This document shows positions 9,835-64,000 of a DNA stretch of 64,000 nt, one piece after another. The translations under genes were made by a program, and so were the position numbers. The stretch covers positions 10,558 through 74,557 of the forward strand of contig LCDG01000001.1 of the NCBI GenBank assembly GCA_000998425.1, read 5' to 3'. The notes beneath the pieces are model-generated. The model had not been told where the DNA came from and searched no databases. It saw nothing but the letters and a program-made list of their open reading frames with translations. The number at the start of each line of letters is the position of its first letter. Within the stretch, counting starts at the first letter, position 1. Source of the stretch: Candidatus Nomurabacteria bacterium GW2011_GWC2_42_20. GTDB lineage: Bacteria > Patescibacteriota > Minisyncoccia > Phycocordibacterales > UBA1550.

Positions 9835-10725
9835 ATGATTTTAACAAAAGAAGAAATGCGTGCAAAAATAAATGATCTCGAGGCTAGTATGTCCGATGTT
9901 GATTTTTGGACGGACAAGACTAAGGCACAGGCTGTTATAAAGGAAATTGCAGAGCTTAAAGAAAAAATTGCCGGTGTCGGCAAATATGATCGCGGTAATG
10001 CAGTAATGACTATTTTCTCCGGCGCAGGCGGGGATGACTCGGAAGATTTTTCTGGAATGCTCCTTCGTATGTACTTGAAGTTTTTTGAAAAGCAAAATTT
10101 TGAAGCAAAGCTTCTTCACGAAAATAAGAACGACCATGGTGGATATCGCAATATCACACTCGAAATCCATGGGAAAAATGCATACGGAATGCTAAAAAAT
10201 GAATCAGGTGTCCACCGTCTTGTTCGTATTTCGCCATTCAACGCAAAGAAGCTTCGGCATACATCGTTTTCAATGGTTGAAGTTATTCCAGATTTCAGGG
10301 ATAGCGGAAGTGATGAGATGGTTATTCCTGCTGATGATATAAAGATTGAGTTTAGTCGTTCGTCTGGTCCTGGTGGGCAAAATGTAAACAAGCGCGAGAC
10401 TGCAGTGCGTGTGGTACACGTTCCCACAGGAATAGCCGTGCATGTCGAAACCGAGCGCTCTCAGGAGCAAAATCGTGAAAAGGCAATTCAGATACTAAAA
10501 GGAAAACTCTTTAAAAAACAGGACGATGAAAGAAAGGCAACTGAGAGTGGCATGTATATCAGTAAGACTACAGAAATAGAATGGGGGAATCAAATTCGCT
10601 CATATGTACTTCACCCGTACAAGATGGTGAAGGATCATCGTACTAATGTAGAGACATCAAACGTTGACGCAGTGTTAGAAGATGGCGAGATAATGCAATT
10701 CATTGAAGCAGAACGTGATTTATAA
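9835..10725 (+). CDS. prfB: peptide chain release factor 2 (single frame, no programmed frameshift; short domain 1)
   Basis: SPF tripeptide in RISPFNAKKLRHTSF, GGQ in SSGPGGQNVNKRETAVRV. The ATG at 9835 is in frame; an alternative TTG lies at 9799. No CUU-UGA slippery site was found upstream. Confidence 0.85.
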   Translation: MILTKEEMRAKINDLEASMSDVDFWTDKTKAQAVIKEIAELKEKIAGVGKYDRGNAVMTIFSGAGGDDSEDFSGMLLRMYLKFFEKQNFEAKLLHENKNDHGGYRNITLEIHGKNAYGMLKNESGVHRLVRISPFNAKKLRHTSFSMVEVIPDFRDSGSDEMVIPADDIKIEFSRSSGPGGQNVNKRETAVRVVHVPTGIAVHVETERSQEQNREKAIQILKGKLFKKQDDERKATESGMYISKTTEIEWGNQIRSYVLHPYKMVKDHRTNVETSNVDAVLEDGEIMQFIEAERDL

Positions 10726-51361: not shown

Positions 51362-52378
51362 ATGAATTGTATGAGAGCGCTCTTGTTAATCATTTTTATA
51401 TTTTTTTCGTTTCCTGTATATGCAGCTTCGCAGCCACTAAAAAATGTTGGGTTTGTTCCTGCAAATATTTGGTTTTCAAAAGACCCATTTTTTGACGGAG
51501 AAAAAATCAGAATATACACGATTGTCTTCAATGGTAGTTCCTATGCCCTGGAAGGCACGGTTGAATTTTTGGACAATGGTGTGTTTATTGGAAAAACAAA
51601 TTTTTCTTTGTCATCTGGTGGTCGTGTGCGTGATATGTGGATCGATTGGGAGGCAACAAAGGGGAAGCATGCAATAACTGCGCGTATAGTTGGGGCAACA
51701 GCATCATCGTCTGGTGGTGCAAAAAGCTCAGTCATGCTCGATAATACAGAGACAGGGAAGAGTGTGCGCGATGTCGATATGGACAGCGATGGTGACGATA
51801 TCGGGGATAGAGACGATCTGGATGACGATGGTGACGGAATATCTGACGTTGATGAACTCAGAAATGGAACAGACCCTCTTAAAAAAGATACTGACGGTGA
51901 CGGAATATCTGATGATAAGGAGCTTGAGATTTTGCTAAAAGATAAGGCAGAAGCAGAGTTGATTTTAGATAGTGCGTCAACGTCAGTTGGCACTATTTTA
52001 CATACATTAAGGAAAATAGATGAAACTATTCCTGAACCAATAAAAACAGCTGCAATAACCAGTACAAATATTGTGGAGCGTTTTCGAGTCGAAGAAGGGT
52101 ACAAATTCGCTCTTGCAAAGGATAAAAAACTTCAAGAAATAAAGTTAACCAGCGAGAATAAGCAAAAAATACTTGCGCAGGAGAATAGCAAGAATAATGA
52201 AAATGATGTTATTGGCAACGTGTCAAATGCTACAAAAAAACCATTTGCATATGCAATGCTCGCGAGTCTTGCCGTACTTGAGTATACTTTTAAATGGAAG
52301 GTTGTATTTTATGGAATCCTACTTTATACAGCGTATCGTATGATTATGTGGCTTGTGCGTCGTGTGCGTGACAGGTAG
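51362..52378 (+). CDS. secreted protein with thrombospondin type-3-like Ca-binding Asp-rich repeats and a C-terminal TM anchor
   Basis: Signal peptide; ...DVDMDSDGDDIGDRDDLDDDGDGISDVDELRNGTDPLKKDTDGDGISDDKE... (DxDxDG repeats); C-terminal hydrophobic helices. Confidence 0.6.
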   Translation: MNCMRALLLIIFIFFSFPVYAASQPLKNVGFVPANIWFSKDPFFDGEKIRIYTIVFNGSSYALEGTVEFLDNGVFIGKTNFSLSSGGRVRDMWIDWEATKGKHAITARIVGATASSSGGAKSSVMLDNTETGKSVRDVDMDSDGDDIGDRDDLDDDGDGISDVDELRNGTDPLKKDTDGDGISDDKELEILLKDKAEAELILDSASTSVGTILHTLRKIDETIPEPIKTAAITSTNIVERFRVEEGYKFALAKDKKLQEIKLTSENKQKILAQENSKNNENDVIGNVSNATKKPFAYAMLASLAVLEYTFKWKVVFYGILLYTAYRMIMWLVRRVRDR

Positions 52379-55454: not shown

Positions 55455-57923
55455 ATGGCGCGTAAAAAAGAAGAAAAAGACGAATCAGCAGTCGTTCCAC
55501 CAGAGCGAGTAAACGTTGTTCCTCAGGACATTTCTAGCGAAATGCGCGCGAGTTTTATCGATTATGCTATGTCAGTTATTACTGACCGCGCTCTTCCTGA
55601 TGTTCGTGATGGCTTAAAGCCGGTACATCGTCGAATACTTTTTTCAATGTATGAAAAAGGCTTGACTGCGTCTGCAAAGTTTAGGAAGTCTGCAACGGTA
55701 GTCGGAGATGTGCTCGGTAGTTACCACCCTCATGGCGATTCGTCTGTGTACGAGGCTATGGTAAAGATGGCGCAGGAATTTTCATTCCGCTATCCGCTTG
55801 TAATAGGACAGGGTAACTTCGGTTCTATTGACGGTGATGCAGCAGCAGCATATCGCTACACAGAGGCAAAAATGTCACGCATTTCTGGTGAACTTTTGAA
55901 CGATATTGATCGCGAGACGGTGGATTTCAAGCCAAACTATGACGGCACAAAAAAAGAACCAACTGTTCTACCTTCGTCTCTCCCAAACCTCCTCTTAAAC
56001 GGTACGCTCGGTATCGCGGTTGGTATGGCTACCAACTTTCCTCCTCACAACTTGGGCGAGCTTGTGGATGCTACAAACCATCTTATTGACGAACCTGACG
56101 CAACATCTGACGACCTTGTTAAGTTTGTAAAAGGACCAGACTTCCCTATAGGTGGTATCGTGTTCGGTGAAAAAGATATCAAGCATGCGTATTCATCGGG
56201 GCGTGGCGGAGTGGTTTGTCGTGGTGAAGCAGAGATTATTGAGGACAAAAACCTTAACCAGATTATTATCACATCTCTTCCTTTTCGTGTTAACAAAGCA
56301 AATCTTATTGTGAAGATTGCTGACCTTGTGCGCGAGAAAAAGCTTGAGGGGATTCGCGGACTCCGCGATGAATCAACAAAGGATATTCGCGTTGTTATCG
56401 ATCTCAAAAACGGCGCATATCCGCAGGTTGTTTTGAATTATTTATACAAACATACCGAGCTTGAGTCTACATTCCACTACAATATGGTTGCGCTTGTCGA
56501 TGGAGTTCCACAAACACTCTCATTAAAAGGTGTGCTATCAAATTTTATCGGACATCGTCAGGTTGTAGTAAAGCGTCGCACAGAATATGATCTTAGAAAA
56601 GCTGAGGAACGCGAGCATATTTTGCTAGGTCTCAAAAAAGCGCTTGATCATATTGACCGTGTAATCACCATCATTCGCGCATCAAAAGATACTGCAACTG
56701 CGCATGCAAACCTCATAAAGGAATTCAAGTTCTCTGATTTGCAAGCAACGGCAATTTTGGAAATGAAACTTCAGAAGCTCGCAGGTTTGGAGCGCAAGAA
56801 TGTGGAACTTGAACTCAAAGAAAAGCAGGATTTTATAAAAGAGTGTAAAGATCTTCTCGCAAGTCCAAAGAAAATTTTGGCTGTAGTAAAAAAGGAGCTT
56901 GGTGAAATGAAAGAAAAGTACGGTGATGCGCGTAGAACTAAGGTTGTGAAGCACGCCGCTGGGTCTATTTCTCTTGAAGATATGATTCCCGATGAAGAGT
57001 CTATGCTCGTGTATACAAAGGGTGGCTATATAAAGCGCACAAACCCAGGCGAGTATCGTCAGCAAAACCGTGGTGGTGTTGGTGTTGTTGATTTGGATAC
57101 AAAAGAAGAGGATTTTATCACGCTATTTATGTCGGCTACGACACACAGCGACATGCTCTTTTTCTCAGACAAAGGCAAGGCGTACCAGATAAAAATGTAC
57201 GATATCCCTGAAGGCAAGCGCGCGACACGTGGTAAGTCGATTATGAACTTCATCGCGCTTTCGGGAGAGGAAAAAGTAACATCGATTCTCTCGATGCCAA
57301 AGTCACTCAAGGATTCAAATCTTTCGCTCTTTATGGTGACCAAGCATGGCACTATTAAAAAATGTGGAGCCGAGAGTTTTAAGGATGTCCGCAGAAATGG
57401 AATTATTTCTATAAAGCTTGATGCGGGGGACGAGCTTATTGCAGCTCTCTTTACAGAAAAGGGCGATGATATTATTTTGACTACAGCAAAAGGTCAGGCT
57501 ATTCGATTCAAGGAGTCTGACGCACGAGAGATGGGTCGCGCAGCGGCTGGCGTGCGTGGTATGAAGCTCGGTAAGGGCGACTTCATTATCGGCGCAGACG
57601 TTATACAAAAGGGTGCAGAGAAGCCAGAGCTCCTGGTGATGAGTGAAAATGGTTATGGCAAGAAAACTGCGATCAAGGAGTACAAGGTGCAGAAGCGCGG
57701 AGGTTCTGGAATAAAGACTGCAAAGGTGACAGCTAAGATAGGGCAACTCATGGTGGCAAAGGTTGTAACACCAGCGTTTAGCGAGCTTGTCGCTATTTCA
57801 AAAAATAGCCAAGTTATTCGTATTACAATGAAAGACGTTCCAACGCTTGGTCGCGACACGCAGGGCGTTCGTATCATGAAGCTCCGAGAAGGGGACAGTA
57901 TCGCGTCACTTAGTTGCTTGTAG
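55455..57923 (+). CDS. gyrA: DNA gyrase subunit A
   Basis: 822 aa; active-site region ...[13 protein letters not shown]...; N-terminal breakage-reunion domain followed by a C-terminal beta-pinwheel repeat domain. Confidence 0.95.
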
Positions 57924-57933
57924 TTATAATATC

Positions 57934-60900
57934 ATGAATAAAATTTCACAAAATAAACTGAGTCCCATTATGGCAGTATTACTCAGTCTCTTTGTCGTGC
58001 TATTTTGGGGTACGCAGACCGTTTACGCGTTAAATATTCTTGACTCTGATTTGAACAGCAACGGAATAATAGACAGCACTGAAACAGAAGTTGTTGTCAC
58101 CTCCAATAAATCTCTCCAATCTGGTGAATATAATTTTGGTAATCTAACAATAACGAATAATGCAGTACTTACGTTGGTTGGAGATCCGCTTTCACCAGAT
58201 CAATTTAAAGGAGTAAAGATAAATGCAACAAATATTTCTGTTTCTTTCGGCTCTCGTATCTCTGCTGATGGACAGGGGTATATTTCTGGTCCTGGAACGT
58301 CCTTAGTGCCTGGCATTAGTGTTGGCGCAAGTTACGGTGGATCAGGTGGTGGTAATTCTGCAACATCAACATATGGCTCAGCAATGACACCAATGGATTT
58401 AGGAAGTGGAACAAGTGGCTCAAAAGGTGGGGGTTCTATTAGACTTGTCGTGTCTAACACACTTTTAAATAATGGGGATATTTCCGCAAATGGACAATCG
58501 TATCGCACGAGTGGCGGAAGCATACATGTGACCACTAATATATTAGTTGGTACAGGTGTGTTTAATGCAAATGGCGCTCGTACTTATTGGCCGAATCAGT
58601 TTGCCGGCGGTGGCGGAAGGATAGCGGTACACTATCAGCAATCGTCATTCACTGGAAGCGCTAAAGCAAATGCGGGTGTCTTTTGTCTTTATGGCTGCAA
58701 CCCGGCAGGTGGCGCTGGAACAGTAGTCTTTTTTGATACTGTGAATAATGATTTGTACACAGGTACTTCTTGGCGCTTTCAAAAAAATGATGAACCTATT
58801 CGCTTAAACCGTATCGTTGTCTCGAATGGCTCTTCGGTAACGATGGACGAGGGGGTTGCTATCACAGCAAACGAGCTTATTATCAGTGGCGCAACCTCAC
58901 TCCCTCTGTCAAAAGGAAGTTTGCTCACAATACACAAAATTACTGTCGATGGAGCAACTATTGTCTCATCTGGAGAAGAGACAATAGTTGCCGATATTCT
59001 CAAGCTCATAAATTCAGCAGTAGTCACTGTTGTTCCGATGCAGACACTTACGCTTTCAGTTCCCAATGTGACTATCGATACAAGCTCACGTATCTCGGCC
59101 GACGCAAAAGGGGATACTGCTGGCTCTGGTTTCCCAAGCAGTATATACGCTGGCGGAAGTCATGGAGGTGTCGGGCTCAACAACACGGCGACATCAACAT
59201 ACGGCTCTGCGAAACAGCCGACAACTCTAGGTAGTGCTGGAGGTGCGCCACATGCTATTGGCGGAGGAGCTATCCGCCTTGTTGTTTCGGGGTCACTTGT
59301 GAACAACGGCGTAATATCAGCCGATGGCAACACATCATCATCGGGTGGAAGTATCTATGCGACTGTAGCCGACATGTCTGGGTCTGGAACGTTTCATGCA
59401 AATGGCGGAGCTCTTGGCAGTGGAGGATATTTCTCTGGGCCTGGTGGTGGCGGACGTGTCGCTGTTTATTATCAAACATCATCATTTAGTGGCGCAATAG
59501 AAGCATTGGGTGGATGCGGGAGCTACGACGGATGGAGCCGTGTCTGTGCTGGGTACGGCACTGTTGTGATACAACAGTCGGATGTTCCATGTACCATCAA
59601 CTGCTATTCAAACATTATGTTCCTACCTGGGGTTATGGGGTCGAGATTGTATGATGAGAATGGTCAAGAATTGTGGGTTTCGAGTGACGATTCTTTGCAA
59701 TCAACTCTTGCAATGAACGCAAGTGGAAAAAGTATAAATTCAATATATACTAATGATGACACCCATAGGAATCATGGAGAAATCGATGAAAGTGGTCTCG
59801 TGGATGATGTGTACGGTTCAAATATTTATGAGTCATTTGTTAACGACCTACGTGTATGGAAGGGAGATAATGACAATGGAATAATTCATGATTACGCATT
59901 CATACCATATGACTGGCGATTGTCGCTTGAGGATATTGTAAATAATGGCGCAACATCAACGCCAGATAAATTGTCATATGCTGATTCTCCTGCTTCAGGT
60001 CAATATATTCTGAAACAACTCGAAGCACTCCAAAAGTCTTCTCGCACAGGCAAGGTGACTATTGTTGCGCACTCAAACGGCGGGCTTGTCACAAAAGCTC
60101 TTATTGAAAAACTCAAGCTAGACAATAATCCATTATATAATCAAATAGATAAAGTGATTTTCGTTGCGGTGCCTCAAGTTGGGACACCAGATGCGGTTGC
60201 CACGCTACTCCATGGGAATAGTCTTGGGCATGGTGCTGTTATGACCACCGCTCGCTCTCGTGAATTGGCAAAAAATATACCGACGATATATAACCTCCTT
60301 CCTTCAGCTCAATACTTCAATACAGTTGAACCTGGTTTTGCGGTTGATAAAGTTGTTTCGTTTGAAAATAAACCTTCCTTTAGTTCGCAATTATCGCAAT
60401 ATGGAGTTTATGTTTCAAATGAAAATGAACTCAAAGGGTATGTTTTGAATGATGATAGTCGCTCTGCCCCTGTCTATGCAGACACAAACAGTCCTGCAGT
60501 TGGCAATCGGACTCTTTATGACGATGCACAAAGAGTGCATACTGTCTTGGATAATTGGCAACCAGCATCAACCACAAAAGTGATTCAAGTGGCAGGATGG
60601 GGAGCGGAAACACTTGCGGGTATAGACAATGTTGAAGCAGTGTCTGTTCCTGCTTTGGGTATTTTCACACACACAATCAATCTTCGCCACGTTGTGGATG
60701 GCGATGGAACCGTTGTTGTCCCAAGTGCGCTGTGGATGGCGACATCGACACCTGGGGTTGAGAGGTGGTGGGTAAACCTGATTAGAAATAATGCAGGTCC
60801 TACTATCGATCGTGACCACCGTGATATCTTGGAAGTTGATAATTTGAGAAATTTTATTAAATCAGAAATAAAAGGTTCTTTATTTAGTGATTCTAGTAAT

Positions 60901-62745
60901 ATTGTGGTTAATGCAACCTCAACGCTAATTTCAGAAGGTGAGCGTCTCCACTTCACACTCCATTCGCCCCTCACTCTCGGCATCACTGACACTCAGGGTC
61001 GCTATACAGGTCTTGACCCTGTAACAGGGGAAATCAAGGAAGAAATCCCTAGCACCACCTACAAGCAGTACGGAGAAGTACAGTTCCTCTCTGTTCCTGT
61101 GGGGCTTCAATACACCTTGAAACTCAAAGGGTACGAGACAGGCACTTTTGCTCTTGATGTGGAAAAGCAAATCGGCAATACGGTTACAGAATCAACATCA
61201 TTCCAAGCAATTCCAACTGCGACAAGCACTGCGGTAATGATGGACATTTCCTCAGTCTTTGAGGTTGCAAGTTCCACTCTGGTTATTGACCAGAATGCTG
61301 ACGGAGTCATTGATGCATCCCTTGAGGCAGCTCCAAGCGGTGTAACAATTTACGACCTTACGGCACCAGTAACTACGGCAACCCCTACAGGTACTCTTGG
61401 CTTAAATCAATACTACACTTCCTCTGTTACGATAACACTGATTAGTGAAGACACCGCTCCTCTCGGAGAAGTGTCTTCTGGTGTAGTAATTACTAAGTAC
61501 TCACTCGATAGCGGAACTACGTGGAATACTTACAGTACCTCAACTCCACTCACTATTGTCACCGAAGGCACCACCGCGCTTCAGTACTACTCAGTAGACA
61601 ATAATGGCAATACTGAGACACCAAAGACGCTTACGCTCAATATTGATACGGTTGCCCCAACCATTTTCGCCTCAGACACTTCCGCAGAGCAACTTACTAT
61701 TGAAGGAACCACTCTTACTGTTCCCGCCACAACAGAAGACACGATAGACCCAAGTCCAACCCTCACCACAAATGTTCCACTCACACAGACGTTTGTTCTG
61801 GGAGTAACGAGTATATTGCTAACCGCACAGGATCTGGCAGGAAACATCGCAACTTCGAGTATCGCAGTCACTATCTACTCAAGCCCTACCGCAGACCCTG
61901 ACGGTGATGGTGTACCAAATCAAGACGATGTGAAGCCGTTTGACGCTACCGTCTTTGCAAACCTCACCATTCCAGCAGAATATGCATTCTGGGAAAAAGA
62001 GTCATTTGATCTACCTTTCTCAGTGGCAGGGAAAGGGAATGTTACACTCTCACTCTCTAATACTTACTACAAAGTCGAAACATCTCCAATTAAGGACAGT
62101 GTTGTGGCTATTGTCCCCGCAACAGTTTTGACAGTTGATGGTGTTGTCACTGTTTCTTTCTCTCAAGATACTAAGGAACTCAAGACGTATACACTCACTC
62201 TTACAACCACCAAAGGAAATACAAAGGAACGTAAGTCTCTTAAAGAAAAGCGAGACCATGAATCAGATGAAGGGCGAAGGCATGATCTCGAAAAGGAACT
62301 CGATTTTGCAGATGCTCCTATCACGCTTAGTATTACAAATACAACGGCAAACAAAACAACGTCACAGATAAGCGTGATAAATATCTATGATAAACAGCAG
62401 ACTGCCCAACTTCAGTACAAATACAAAGATACTGACTACAGCACCACGCTTCTTCTTAAATCTGATGACGTGCTGAAAACAAAGAAGGGACAGCCACTTG
62501 AGCTTACGGTAAAGGTGACTGGAATCAAGAAAGATGTTCCTTTCACTACAAATATATCTGGTAACTTCACAATCCTCAGTGTAGTACAGGAGGAAGAGCA
62601 CAAAGACGATGATGATCGTAAGCAGACGAAATTCTCCCTCTTCTATCCGCTCTCAACACAGTCAACTCAAGAAAATATCACCATTACCACAACTGTCAAC
62701 GGCATAACATCGACTGATGTGGTGGGGGTGAAGTTTGAGGAGTAG
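57934..62745 (+). CDS. giant secreted multidomain protein (1603 aa): signal peptide, two homologous Gly-rich beta-helix-like modules, lipase-like alpha/beta-hydrolase domain, Ig-like/Thr-rich segments, DPDGDG Ca-binding motif, C-terminal ~180-aa module
   Basis: Internal duplication (GGSGGGNSATSTYGSAMTPMDLGSGTSGSKGGGSIRLVVS... vs GGSHGGVGLNNTATSTYGSAKQPTTLGSAGGAPHAIGGGAIRLVVS...). The hydrolase domain reads FLPGVMGSRL...GKVTIVAHSNGGLVTKALIEKL (GHSxGG nucleophile elbow). The C-terminal module is homologous to ORF 63196..63777. Confidence 0.8.
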   Translation: MNKISQNKLSPIMAVLLSLFVVLFWGTQTVYALNILDSDLNSNGIIDSTETEVVVTSNKSLQSGEYNFGNLTITNNAVLTLVGDPLSPDQFKGVKINATNISVSFGSRISADGQGYISGPGTSLVPGISVGASYGGSGGGNSATSTYGSAMTPMDLGSGTSGSKGGGSIRLVVSNTLLNNGDISANGQSYRTSGGSIHVTTNILVGTGVFNANGARTYWPNQFAGGGGRIAVHYQQSSFTGSAKANAGVFCLYGCNPAGGAGTVVFFDTVNNDLYTGTSWRFQKNDEPIRLNRIVVSNGSSVTMDEGVAITANELIISGATSLPLSKGSLLTIHKITVDGATIVSSGEETIVADILKLINSAVVTVVPMQTLTLSVPNVTIDTSSRISADAKGDTAGSGFPSSIYAGGSHGGVGLNNTATSTYGSAKQPTTLGSAGGAPHAIGGGAIRLVVSGSLVNNGVISADGNTSSSGGSIYATVADMSGSGTFHANGGALGSGGYFSGPGGGGRVAVYYQTSSFSGAIEALGGCGSYDGWSRVCAGYGTVVIQQSDVPCTINCYSNIMFLPGVMGSRLYDENGQELWVSSDDSLQSTLAMNASGKSINSIYTNDDTHRNHGEIDESGLVDDVYGSNIYESFVNDLRVWKGDNDNGIIHDYAFIPYDWRLSLEDIVNNGATSTPDKLSYADSPASGQYILKQLEALQKSSRTGKVTIVAHSNGGLVTKALIEKLKLDNNPLYNQIDKVIFVAVPQVGTPDAVATLLHGNSLGHGAVMTTARSRELAKNIPTIYNLLPSAQYFNTVEPGFAVDKVVSFENKPSFSSQLSQYGVYVSNENELKGYVLNDDSRSAPVYADTNSPAVGNRTLYDDAQRVHTVLDNWQPASTTKVIQVAGWGAETLAGIDNVEAVSVPALGIFTHTINLRHVVDGDGTVVVPSALWMATSTPGVERWWVNLIRNNAGPTIDRDHRDILEVDNLRNFIKSEIKGSLFSDSSNIVVNATSTLISEGERLHFTLHSPLTLGITDTQGRYTGLDPVTGEIKEEIPSTTYKQYGEVQFLSVPVGLQYTLKLKGYETGTFALDVEKQIGNTVTESTSFQAIPTATSTAVMMDISSVFEVASSTLVIDQNADGVIDASLEAAPSGVTIYDLTAPVTTATPTGTLGLNQYYTSSVTITLISEDTAPLGEVSSGVVITKYSLDSGTTWNTYSTSTPLTIVTEGTTALQYYSVDNNGNTETPKTLTLNIDTVAPTIFASDTSAEQLTIEGTTLTVPATTEDTIDPSPTLTTNVPLTQTFVLGVTSILLTAQDLAGNIATSSIAVTIYSSPTADPDGDGVPNQDDVKPFDATVFANLTIPAEYAFWEKESFDLPFSVAGKGNVTLSLSNTYYKVETSPIKDSVVAIVPATVLTVDGVVTVSFSQDTKELKTYTLTLTTTKGNTKERKSLKEKRDHESDEGRRHDLEKELDFADAPITLSITNTTANKTTSQISVINIYDKQQTAQLQYKYKDTDYSTTLLLKSDDVLKTKKGQPLELTVKVTGIKKDVPFTTNISGNFTILSVVQEEEHKDDDDRKQTKFSLFYPLSTQSTQENITITTTVNGITSTDVVGVKFEE

Positions 62746-62781
62746 AGTTATTTGATGTGCTTATTGAAAATTAATTAAATT

Positions 62782-63192
62782 ATGAAAAAGATACTCAATT
62801 GGTTTACCAGGGGGAAAACAATGATCTTCGGGTTTGTCGGCAGCCTTATTTTTATTGGTGCTGTTTACTATATTGATGCCTATTGCAAAAAAGGAATGTA
62901 TGTTTGCAATAATTCCCATGAGATTATCTGGATGCTGTCAATGGTTTTTGTGTCTGTATTTATTTGGAGTATTTTAACTTATAAAATGAAGGAAGAAATT
63001 TTTATAAGTTGGAGAAACTTCAGTGTTGTGTTTGTTTTATTCTCATTTTTAACAATATTGATTTTACCATTTAAGTGCGATCCATATTTGCGGATTTGCA
63101 AAGAGTCTTTTTCCTGGCTTTTTGTGTTCGCCCATCTCTCTCTCTCTCTCCTTATAATTATATATAAATCTTTCAAAAAAGAACCACGCTAA
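62782..63192 (+). CDS. 4-TM small membrane protein immediately downstream of the giant gene (immunity-like or accessory); contains a (TC)9 tract
   Basis: 136 aa MKKILNWFTRGKTMIFGFVGSLIFIGAVYY...; the dinucleotide run tctctctctctctctctc lies at 63135-63152 inside the ORF. Confidence 0.5.
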   Translation: MKKILNWFTRGKTMIFGFVGSLIFIGAVYYIDAYCKKGMYVCNNSHEIIWMLSMVFVSVFIWSILTYKMKEEIFISWRNFSVVFVLFSFLTILILPFKCDPYLRICKESFSWLFVFAHLSLSLLIIIYKSFKKEPR

Positions 63193-63195
63193 ATT

Positions 63196-63777
63196 GTGAT
63201 CACCCTTGCGTTAACAATTAGATCCGCTTTTCTTGTCACCATCAAGAAAGGAAATACAAAGGAAAAGGAATCCATAAAAAAGAAGAAGGAACATGAATCA
63301 GAAGAAGGGCGAAGGCACGATCTTGAAAAAGAGTTAGACTTTGCTTCTGCACCCATTATGCTCTCGCTCCAAAGTCTAAGTTGCCCAAACACCACTTCTC
63401 AAACAGCTACCGTAAACATTTACGACAAGGAGCAAAATATGCAAGTCCACTTCAAGTACAAAGATACAGGAACTCTCGATTTTGTTATGAAGTCGGATGA
63501 TGTCATAAAAATAAAAAAAGGTCAGCCACTCGTGCTAACTATTAAAGTCAGCGGACCAAAGAGGGAAGTATTCTTTGATGCATCTTTGGTGGGGAGCTTC
63601 ACTTCCCTTGCCGTGTCTCAGGAAGAACAACACCACGATGGTGACGACAGAAAACAAAAGACATTCACATTATTCTATCCACTCTCAACGCAAACGACAC
63701 AAGAAAATATTGTGGTTAATTTGAGGGTGGGCGGGGGAACAAAGAGTGAAATATTAAGTGTGCGATTTGAAGACTGA
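63196..63777 (+). CDS. start-less orphan copy (~60% aa identity) of the giant protein's C-terminal module
   Basis: ...KKGNTKEKESIKKKKEHESEEGRRHDLEKELDFASAPIMLS...IYDKEQNMQVHFKYKDTG...LFYPLSTQTTQENI... aligns with 62190-62745 (...TKGNTKERKSLKEKRDHESDEGRRHDLEKELDFADAPITLS...). There is no ATG at the frame start; only GTG at 63196. Confidence 0.5.
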   Translation: MITLALTIRSAFLVTIKKGNTKEKESIKKKKEHESEEGRRHDLEKELDFASAPIMLSLQSLSCPNTTSQTATVNIYDKEQNMQVHFKYKDTGTLDFVMKSDDVIKIKKGQPLVLTIKVSGPKREVFFDASLVGSFTSLAVSQEEQHHDGDDRKQKTFTLFYPLSTQTTQENIVVNLRVGGGTKSEILSVRFED

Positions 63778-63835
63778 AACCAGTAGTTGCCAATAGGGGA
63801 GTTGGGGGTGTTATTAATATTAATATATTTAAATT

Positions 63836-64000
63836 ATGGAAAAAATATTGAATTTGGTGACAAAAAAACCATTTTTATTGGAAGCTTGATTGGTATTGGA
63901 GTGGCGTTTGGAATTGAGTCGTTACATAGGCAAGCCTTGATTTCAAGGAATATATACAAAATTACTGCAGAACCGTTATTTCATGTTTCCATTGCGTTAA
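63836..64000 (+). pseudogene. paralog of membrane protein 62782..63192, frameshifted at an A7 homopolymer (continues beyond the window)
   Basis: ATG at 63836 gives MEKILNLVTKK then shifts out of frame at aaaaaaa (63862-63868). The -1 frame continues TIFIGSLIGIGVAFGIESL..., homologous to MKKILNWFTRGKTMIFGFVGSLIFIGAVYY. Confidence 0.4.

Follow-up and report, generated by a model that had tools for sequence, protein, structure and literature searches.

Introduction

LPLA2, LCAT and PDAT work on the acyl chains of phospholipids, both as phospholipases and as acyltransferases, and the Tle effectors, including Tle4, attack the bacterial membranes of other cells. Here, a gene is described whose product carries a hydrolase domain related to these enzymes and which belongs to a tiny, presumably lipid-dependent groundwater bacterium of the Parcubacteria (Paceibacteria), within the Patescibacteria (Candidate Phyla Radiation, CPR), a group that constitutes a large share of bacterial diversity. 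The gene is located within a stretch of 64,000 nucleotides (nt) of Candidatus Nomurabacteria bacterium GW2011_GWC2_42_20 (positions 10,558 to 74,557 of contig LCDG01000001.1, assembly GCA_000998425.1), which is termed the window throughout, and forms an open reading frame (ORF) of 1603 amino acids (aa) with an ATG start at 57934..62745. The features described below for 57934 to 64000 are all encoded on the forward strand.

Patescibacteria are devoid of lipid synthesis, and their mechanism of lipid uptake or breakdown has not been identified (PMC11665869). Cells of the CPR are enriched in lysolipids, which were proposed to originate from other bacteria via phospholipase A (PMC7242380), and for Vampirococcus a secreted phospholipase was proposed to serve the same purpose (PMC8080830). 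In Plasmodium, host-derived membranes are disrupted by LCAT-like enzymes that the parasite secretes (PMC10325081). These apicomplexan LCAT-like phospholipases (Plasmodium PbPL/PfLCAT, Toxoplasma LCAT) resemble the enzyme considered here in that they belong to the LCAT family, are exported by an obligate parasite and target host-derived membranes, whereas they differ in being eukaryotic, in having no beta-helix and in being devoted to egress, not to feeding or attachment as an epibiont.

The 1603-aa protein is, with moderate confidence, probably a Sec-exported multi-domain surface or secreted phospholipase A/acyltransferase that would act on the membrane of a neighbouring cell, and its gene is consistently paired with one for a small protein with four predicted transmembrane helices (4-TM). 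The enzyme class as such is not new, since relatives are already annotated as LCAT or alpha/beta hydrolase in public databases. A literature search on LCAT-like proteins in Patescibacteria returned nothing specific, and the searchable literature contains no description of the size and constancy of the family, of its core with swappable heads, of the 4-TM partner or of the cassette arrays outlined below. As one member of a very large family (1364 clusters), in which an intact LCAT/LPLA2-type active site is, in the architectures sampled, combined with adhesin-like or other extracellular-type domains, the locus offers a direct experimental handle on the long-standing question of how CPR bacteria obtain or attack lipids, and a concrete candidate for the harvesting or attacking of other cells' membranes. 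Should the enzyme be an ordinary esterase, the finding would shrink to a better annotation for more than 1000 'hypothetical' proteins.

Family assignment and active site of the hydrolase

The LCAT/LPLA2-type alpha/beta-hydrolase domain spans residues 546-1000 (59569..60933) and carries the motifs PGVMGSRL, PYDWR, AHSNGG and DGDGTV. A first-pass annotation of the window had pointed to the lipase motifs FLPGVMGSRL and VAHSNGG, both of which were found (residues 563-572 and 711-717, respectively, with PGVMGSRL at 565-572), in addition to IPYDWRLS at residues 657-664. Its family label, 'PGAP1/LCAT/DUF676-like', could be narrowed down to LCAT: the Pfam family LCAT (PF02450) matches residues 654-817 with 43.2 bits (gathering score 21; E 4e-11), and the corresponding matches of relatives extend to profile positions 56-362 of 392, whereas PGAP1 and DUF676, as well as DUF900, each remained below their Pfam cut-offs. 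DUF7379 scored just above its cut-off (34.6 versus 33).

An AlphaFold2 model of residues 546-1140 reached a predicted local distance difference test (pLDDT) value of 89.5 and a predicted template modelling (pTM) score of 0.91. The best match of this model in Foldseek was LPLA2 (4x92/4x90; E 9e-13 to 2.5e-12; TM-score on the target 0.67-0.69), with an alignment of 474-478 columns over the 376-aa chain that, by overall fold, covers the whole enzyme including its accessory (cap and membrane-binding) subdomains, followed by Tle4, a Pseudomonas effector of the type VI secretion system (T6SS; 4r1d; E 6.5e-10, TM-score on the target 0.47), and human LCAT (E 7e-10, 0.60-0.64). Family I.5 lipases, PlaB and the polyhydroxybutyrate depolymerase PhaZ7 (PhaZ7 at E about 1e-3) were much weaker. 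A phmmer search with the whole protein against PDB sequences returned chance-level matches only, while the best PDB match of the family profile is Tle4 (E 6.5e-6), with which it shares the motifs PGIxG and HSxGGLV; in the alignment of this profile to LPLA2, AHS714NGG falls on AHSMG, PYDWR on PYDWR and DGD924GTV on GDGDGTV. The domain scan with hidden Markov models (HMMs) and the structure prediction, both of which the first-pass annotation had recommended, agree on an LCAT/LPLA2-type alpha/beta-hydrolase, and by all sequence and fold criteria tried the domain is classified as a member of the LCAT-like family.

Ser714, Asp924 and His962 constitute the predicted catalytic triad. The nucleophile Ser714 (codon 60073..60075) is assigned by conservation and by alignment to the serine of the LPLA2 motif AHSMG, Asp924 within DGDGTV (codon 60703..60705) likewise by conservation and alignment to LPLA2, and His962 (codon 60817..60819), which lies outside the HMM alignment to LPLA2, by its conservation in 98-99% of homologues. 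Among 51 homologues, S714 and D924 were present in 100% and H962 in 98%, with P565 and G566 invariant. When the query and 145 cluster representatives were considered, S714 was retained at 146/146, D924 at 139/139 and H962 at 141/142 non-gap positions, YDWR occurred in 146/146 and G566 in 145/146. Taken together, triad and PYDWR are all but invariant across about 190 relatives. The loss of the triad against which the first-pass annotation had cautioned is therefore not seen in the alignments, and the enzyme is predicted to be intact.

In common with LPLA2 (PLA2G15) and LCAT, the domain has the alpha/beta-hydrolase fold with LCAT-type accessory subdomains (TM-scores 0.60-0.69), the motif order PGxxGSxL, PYDWR, AHSxG and GDGTV followed by a His, and the Ser-Asp-His triad. 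In contrast to these enzymes, it is part of a bacterial protein of 1603 aa, where a beta-helix precedes it and Ig-like domains come after it, and is followed by a beta-sandwich, and its gene is paired with that of a 4-TM protein. Tle4 (TplE, PA1510 of P. aeruginosa, PDB 4R1D), a PGAP1-like enzyme and the best bacterial structural match of the hydrolase, reaches its target through a T6SS and has periplasmic Tli4 as its immunity protein, whereas a predicted Sec signal and an integral 4-TM partner are encountered here. Since neither T6SS genes (VgrG/Hcp) nor a Tli immunity gene are present among the called genes of the nine loci compared, the protein does not count as an effector of the Tle4 type as far as the system is concerned.

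The weaker Foldseek matches to PhaZ7 and to lipases and esterases of other classes would be in line with a non-lipid esterase that acts on polyhydroxyalkanoate, cutin-like polyesters or acetylated polysaccharides while held by a carbohydrate-binding beta-helix. Such an activity is nonetheless very improbable, given that the matches to LPLA2 and LCAT are better by nine orders of magnitude and extend across the entire enzyme with its accessory subdomains, that the LCAT-specific PYDWR is invariant and that adhesins appear to rank above lyases for the beta-helix.

Pairing with a four-transmembrane-helix protein

The firmest new result is the pairing of the LCAT gene with the 4-TM gene. While the first-pass annotation had recognised the enzyme and its Gly-rich modules, it missed this partner, as well as the 3' cassette array and the distinction between a variable Gly-rich head and a constant lipase plus beta-sandwich. 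In the window, the partner is an ORF of 136 aa at 62782..63192 (deposited as 123 aa with a later start) with four predicted membrane helices. In 9/9 loci, the gene next to the LCAT-family gene on its downstream side encodes a 4-TM family member; of these loci, eight (L001-L005, L011, L012 and L015) have a clear match (E 1e-11 to 1e-61) and one, L016, a weak one. An HMM built from four proteins finds the gene in loci outside the model (L001, E 4e-22; L003, E 1e-16; L004, E 8e-11), and a nine-sequence model matches at L015, which harbours a distant family member with a different head, with E 3e-35. At L016 the match appears only if UGA is read as Trp, one UGA being located at a conserved Trp of the 4-TM family. 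In two control loci, which encode the beta-helix module and no LCAT domain, a 4-TM neighbour was found in 0/2. The genes surrounding the LCAT/4-TM pair vary between genomes, and the preservation of the pair amid differing neighbourhoods argues for a functional unit.

The 4-TM family comprises 71 detectable members, all of about 130-145 aa, and the partner has no match in Pfam, NCBIfam, PADLOC or the PDB. The 4-TM protein may serve to anchor the enzyme in the membrane, protect the producing cell itself or take up the lipid product.

Size, architecture and distribution of the family

An exhaustive phmmer search with the hydrolase alone, counted as representatives of 50%-identity clusters, yielded 2734 representatives at E<=1e-3, of which 1364 reach E<=1e-30. 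Its top 150 representatives are multi-domain proteins of about 370-1630 residues, in all of which the hydrolase is internal; with the family put at about 800 to 1600 aa, the epithet 'giant' of the first-pass annotation is generous, although the 1603 aa themselves hold. The hydrolase is followed by a conserved beta-sandwich (residues 1001-1140; 60934..61353; all-beta model with pLDDT above 90) in 133/145 representatives, whereas the Gly-rich beta-helix is present in only 3/145. Hence, hydrolase plus beta-sandwich represent the constant unit, to which the beta-helix contributes one interchangeable head; other N-terminal heads encompass Beta_helix/NosD (PF13229/PF05048), lamin-tail (LTD) and Ig-like domains.

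All named relatives belong to the Patescibacteria (Paceibacterota, Minisyncoccia, Kaiserbacteria and one labelled Saccharibacteria), a restriction that refers to named matches only. A scan of genome contigs with one protein as query returned 4 loci. Locus L016 (5001-10107 of a 775-kb contig) encodes a family member with in-frame UGA codons that is not translatable with code 11, and because the genes at L016 need UGA as a sense codon, the family reaches a lineage with a reassigned stop codon.

The unusual architecture is in itself what an assembly chimera, or a pseudo-enzyme serving only as an adhesin, would display. Identical copies of the 1603-aa protein are found on 17 contigs (the NCBI assembly and several Joint Genome Institute metagenomes) with the same neighbours, the order of beta-helix and LCAT domain is common to ~50 relatives from unrelated assemblies, and the triad is invariant. 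The chimera that the first-pass annotation had raised as a possible artefact is ruled out by the contigs and the relatives, and the explanation as a whole is scarcely credible. Moreover, full-length homologues of the protein are matched with E = 0, which excludes chance.

The gene and its predicted export signal

The gene starts 10 nt after the end of gyrA (55455..57923), and its start, strand and length are exactly those of the first-pass annotation. It was deposited as hypothetical protein UU88_C0003G0046, and the database copy under this name, from Parcubacteria group bacterium GW2011_GWC1_42_11, is 100% identical, with the annotated start 12 codons downstream. Short intergenic gaps suggest a possible operon, and a promoter/terminator scan of 57.5-64 kb gave nothing above shuffled expectation.

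Sec-type export of the protein is likely on account of its charged and hydrophobic N-terminus with a cleavage-type site. This signal-peptide-like segment (residues 1-32; 57934..58029) reads MNKISQNK-LSPIMAVLLSLFVVLFWG-TQTVYA↓LN and comprises a charged n-region with two lysines, a single hydrophobic segment at residues 9-27 (Kyte-Doolittle 2.12) and a V-x-A cleavage-type site, with cleavage predicted after VYA. Judged from sequence and hydropathy, the signal peptide claimed earlier is thus likely.

The 3' cassette array

The terminal portion of the gene belongs to a repeated unit. It encodes a beta-rich linker domain (residues 1334-1425; 61933..62208), which is part of the repeated 3' cassette, and a C-terminal domain (residues 1426-1603; 62209..62742) that is rare, with only 7 homologues in 5.8 billion proteins and no relative in Pfam, NCBIfam, PADLOC or the PDB. 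Downstream of the 4-TM gene, at 63196..63777, lies a truncated copy of the C-terminal domain ('orphan cassette') of 193 aa without signal peptide, 57% identical to residues 1423-1603. It is succeeded by a second copy of the 4-TM gene (63836..64000), which runs off the window and is frameshifted after MEKILNLVTKK at an A7 run: from 63836 it reads MEKILNLVTKKPFLLEA and then a stop (63836..63890), matching the N-terminus of the family, and after the A7 run at about 63866 it resumes in the frame of 63808. A 148-aa ORF at this second copy is called identically in all three assemblies examined, and the copy is either a pseudogene or a slippage-prone switch.

At locus L005 (15227-17952) the array is extended by an ORF of 311 aa, 77% identical to residues 1296-1603, and a partial copy; every array copy in the window and in L005 has a 4-TM gene copy behind it, the third of these 4-TM copies being split. 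Copies of 302, 302 and 155 aa form the array of L002, L001 has a copy of 845 aa with 90% identity, and L004 and L013 have one of 281 aa. Arrays of truncated copies with small membrane ORFs thus occur at 4 LCAT loci and at L014. Between the copies, the proportion of synonymous differences (pS) is saturated at 0.78-0.86 and that of nonsynonymous differences (pN) is 0.15-0.31; hence, the copies diverged under purifying selection and were not recently homogenised. Silent cassettes for frequent gene conversion, as in antigenic variation, are disfavoured by the same pS values and by the absence of long identical tracts. A read-through of the stop that would join the 4-TM ORF to the next cassette, which is in the same frame in the window, was dismissed as the frames differ in L005 and L002.

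In loci of contact-dependent growth inhibition (CDI) and in Rhs loci, a new 3' end together with its partner recombines into the expressed gene and pushes the old one downstream. The orphan modules of these systems (cdiA-CT/cdiI and Rhs) resemble the present arrays in several respects: a full-length exported protein is followed by truncated 3' copies, the copies begin in a conserved pre-terminal region, lack export signals and are each followed by a small ORF, and the pattern of divergence is that of displaced alleles. By analogy, the truncated copies are probably displaced former 3' ends and would indicate that the C-terminal domain has been exchanged repeatedly along with its partner. On the other hand, the C-terminal domains here are variants of one fold without known relative and do not correspond to any known toxin, all small ORFs are members of a single 4-TM family, found also beside relatives without this C-terminal domain, and the same tail is joined to a metalloprotease-like head in another genome.

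The latter case, locus L014 (2186-8438; JALNYL010000003.1), encodes a 1658-aa protein with a NosD-type beta-helix and a HELAH zincin-like (metalloprotease-like) region. Over the last 580 residues, this protein shares 64% identity with residues 1022-1603 of the 1603-aa protein, and 4-TM genes and a cassette fragment follow. Because tail and 4-TM partner are joined there to a metalloprotease-like head, they appear to be a platform for different enzyme heads. Independently of the domain architecture, the cassette arrays are a further indication of a protein that is turned towards other cells and subject to diversifying replacement.

The same arrays bear on a reading of the locus as a polymorphic-toxin-like antibacterial membrane toxin, in which the lipase and/or the C-terminal domain kills neighbour or host cells, the 4-TM protein confers immunity and the truncated copies are orphan toxin-immunity modules. 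It overlaps with that of a phospholipase directed at neighbouring cells, the purpose being killing or competition instead of nutrient harvest. An antibacterial T6SS phospholipase, Tle4, is both the best bacterial structural match and the best PDB sequence-profile match; arrays in which every truncated C-terminal copy precedes a small membrane ORF are present at 4 LCAT loci and L014, and the saturated synonymous sites of the copies and their pN of 0.15-0.31 are what displaced alleles would show. However, unlike toxin-specific immunity proteins, the 4-TM family is constant whatever the C-terminal domain and also follows LCAT proteins lacking it, and the 4-TM protein lies almost wholly within the membrane and lacks a soluble part that could block an active site. 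Furthermore, the C-terminal domains of the arrays are variants of one fold (57-77% identity) and not different toxins, orphan 4-TM copies are frameshifted, and scans for known toxin, T6SS, type VII secretion system, LXG, Rhs and PADLOC signatures found none. A toxin is therefore regarded as unlikely, though still deserving serious weight.

Proposed function and lipid context

Domain architecture, fold, family membership, triad conservation, gene pairing and cassette array are read from the sequences and models; for a phospholipase acting on a neighbouring cell, we infer that the protein is exported, what it cleaves, which cell it meets and what its partner does. The protein would be exported via Sec to the cell surface or into the medium, where the beta-helix and Ig-like domains would keep the catalytic domain in place at the contact site with the other cell. 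The hydrolase would then cleave acyl chains off glycerophospholipids, acting as a phospholipase A and/or a transacylase in the manner of LPLA2, LCAT and Tle4, whereby the membrane of the other cell would be weakened and lysolipids and fatty acids would be freed for the lipid-auxotrophic episymbiont. The phospholipid-directed role is suggested by the agreement between the activities of the family and the lipid biology of the CPR.

Several points weigh against this reading. Identity to LPLA2 and LCAT amounts to only 13-16%, which, together with the weaker fold matches to PhaZ7 and true lipases, makes a non-phospholipid ester substrate possible. A scan of the 1603-aa protein for retention signals found neither a lipobox Cys nor an LPXTG/sortase motif nor a C-terminal transmembrane helix, and as no anchor motif was found, the protein may be either surface-bound or released. 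Lipid auxotrophy is adopted from the literature on the group, the organism itself having been read only over the 64-kb window. A neighbourhood of lipid genes exists in only 1/9 loci (L015), and a surface phospholipase could equally remodel the membrane of its own cell.

The last point corresponds to a housekeeping envelope enzyme that would remodel the cell's own membrane or lipoproteins, for example by producing its own lysolipids or by acyl transfer among its own lipids, with the 4-TM protein as membrane partner. LCAT-family enzymes are generally known to include both acyltransferases and phospholipases, the gene is tightly paired with that of an integral membrane protein, a PlsC-type acyltransferase adjoins the pair in L015, and CPR membranes are rich in lysolipids (PMC7242380). 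One would not expect an enzyme that works on its own membrane, however, to carry an adhesin-type beta-helix of 500 aa together with several Ig-like and Ca-binding domains, and the free swapping of heads (Beta_helix/NosD, LTD, Ig-like) and the replacement of C-terminal ends are typical of proteins that face other cells. Such a housekeeping role is consequently considered improbable, and the action on a neighbouring cell's membrane is preferred.

A more far-reaching version of the preferred reading, which is speculative and rather doubtful, is that the LCAT enzyme and its 4-TM partner are the machinery, so far missing, by which lipid-auxotrophic Patescibacteria acquire their lipids. In this scenario, the beta-helix would dock on the host and the enzyme strip acyl chains or lysolipids by phospholipase A activity or direct transacylation, the 4-TM partner would receive or import the product, PlsC-type enzymes, as at L015, would re-acylate it, and the exchangeable cassettes of C-terminal domain and partner would tune host specificity.

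Three loci have neighbours worth recording. At L015 (3219-9007; JAKFZD010000183.1), the LCAT/4-TM pair is followed by the PlsC-type acyltransferase gene (PF01553), and two DedA/VTT genes are located upstream. At L013 (1984-11874; Paceibacterota), LCAT gene, 4-TM genes and cassette are flanked by two type IV pilus genes, T2SSE (PilB-like) and T2SSF (PilC-like). At L005 (18763-22005), ~4-7 kb past the end of the window, a gene for a solute-binding protein is followed by four small T4SS_pilin (PF18895) genes.

The Gly-rich beta-helix head

Residues 50-545 (58081..59568) are predicted to form a right-handed beta-helix of ~500 aa, for which the AlphaFold2 model of residues 30-560 (52 homologues) is all-beta with pLDDT 94.7 and pTM 0.90. 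It contains two Gly-rich modules, A (residues 91-245; 58204..58668) and B (residues 369-524; 59038..59505), which, with 46% identity over 159 aa (E 2e-29), are real paralogues as far as sequence can tell. The first-pass annotation had placed this duplication at 58.26-58.70 and 59.09-59.52 kb, close to the present boundaries, and the motifs it quoted (STYGSA, GGG[SA]IRLVVS and NNGxISAxG) were all found in the modules. Of its alternatives, 'beta-helix adhesins or polysaccharide lyases', the fold is upheld by the model, whereas the lyase option is less favoured: adhesins appear to rank above lyases as a comparison for the beta-helix, and residues 50-545 would preferably serve as an adhesin or spacer.

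Pfam gave no family at E<=0.1 on residues 1-560 (Beta_helix PF13229, NosD, Chlam_PMP, autotransporter, TPS), and Foldseek of the beta-helix model against the PDB gave nothing at E<=0.001, the best match being a tapirin at E 0.08. In these Pfam and PDB searches, the beta-helix is outside the described sequence families and its Gly-rich modules are without described counterpart. A motif-level likeness to the GGA(I/L/V)/FxxN repeats of chlamydial Pmp proteins (here GGGAIRL and FHAN) finds no support in Pfam. The beta-helix adhesins used for comparison were the A-domain of Candida Awp1, the two-partner secretion (TPS) adhesins EtpA, HMW1 and FHA, the autotransporter passengers UpaB, Ag43 and pertactin, and the tapirins of Caldicellulosiruptor. 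Compared with these, the Gly-rich modules carry long structured loops without solved counterpart, and an outer-membrane translocator or TPS partner is absent here.

Gly-rich module and hydrolase are combined in 53 of the 120 best full-length matches; in the remaining ones the module lies in the C-terminal half, alongside DUF5011, DUF5018 or LTD domains. Judged from these sequences, the Gly-rich beta-helix module is a shuffled unit. In the two control loci, an unannotated ORF of 166-202 aa (L017, 3390-3998; L018, 3491-3991) is found immediately upstream of the beta-helix-module protein and ribosomal L10/L12 genes downstream; this ORF and the beta-helix-module protein may be a conserved pair of their own.

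Tail domains and putative calcium-binding loops

The Ig-like tail of the first-pass annotation was resolved into an OmpL47-type beta-barrel/Ig-like domain (residues 1161-1237; 61414..61644; 45.4 bits versus 40) and a HYR domain (residues 1238-1314; 61645..61875; 25.3 versus 21.7 when the tail was scanned alone), both above their Pfam cut-offs. They are followed by a TSP3-like Ca-binding repeat (residues 1320-1333; 61891..61932), recognised by its sequence DPDGDGVPNQDD at residues 1321-1332, just upstream of which the orphan cassettes start.

Two further loops of this kind were recognised. After the signal peptide, residues 38-49 (58045..58080) form an EF-hand/dockerin-like loop of sequence DLNSNGIIDSTE, at which relatives carry the majority consensus DLNxNGIxDxxE. 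The second, Asp-rich loop, DQNADGVIDASLE (61288..61326), closes the beta-sandwich, with D1119 conserved at 92% and D1123 and D1127 at 78-80%. Together, the EF-hand-like loop, the Asp-rich loop and the TSP3 repeat suggest Ca-dependent folding outside the cell. Upstream in the window, at 51362..52378, a 338-aa ORF with bacterial TSP3 repeats and a weak Big_3_5 match encodes another probable exported Ca-binding protein.

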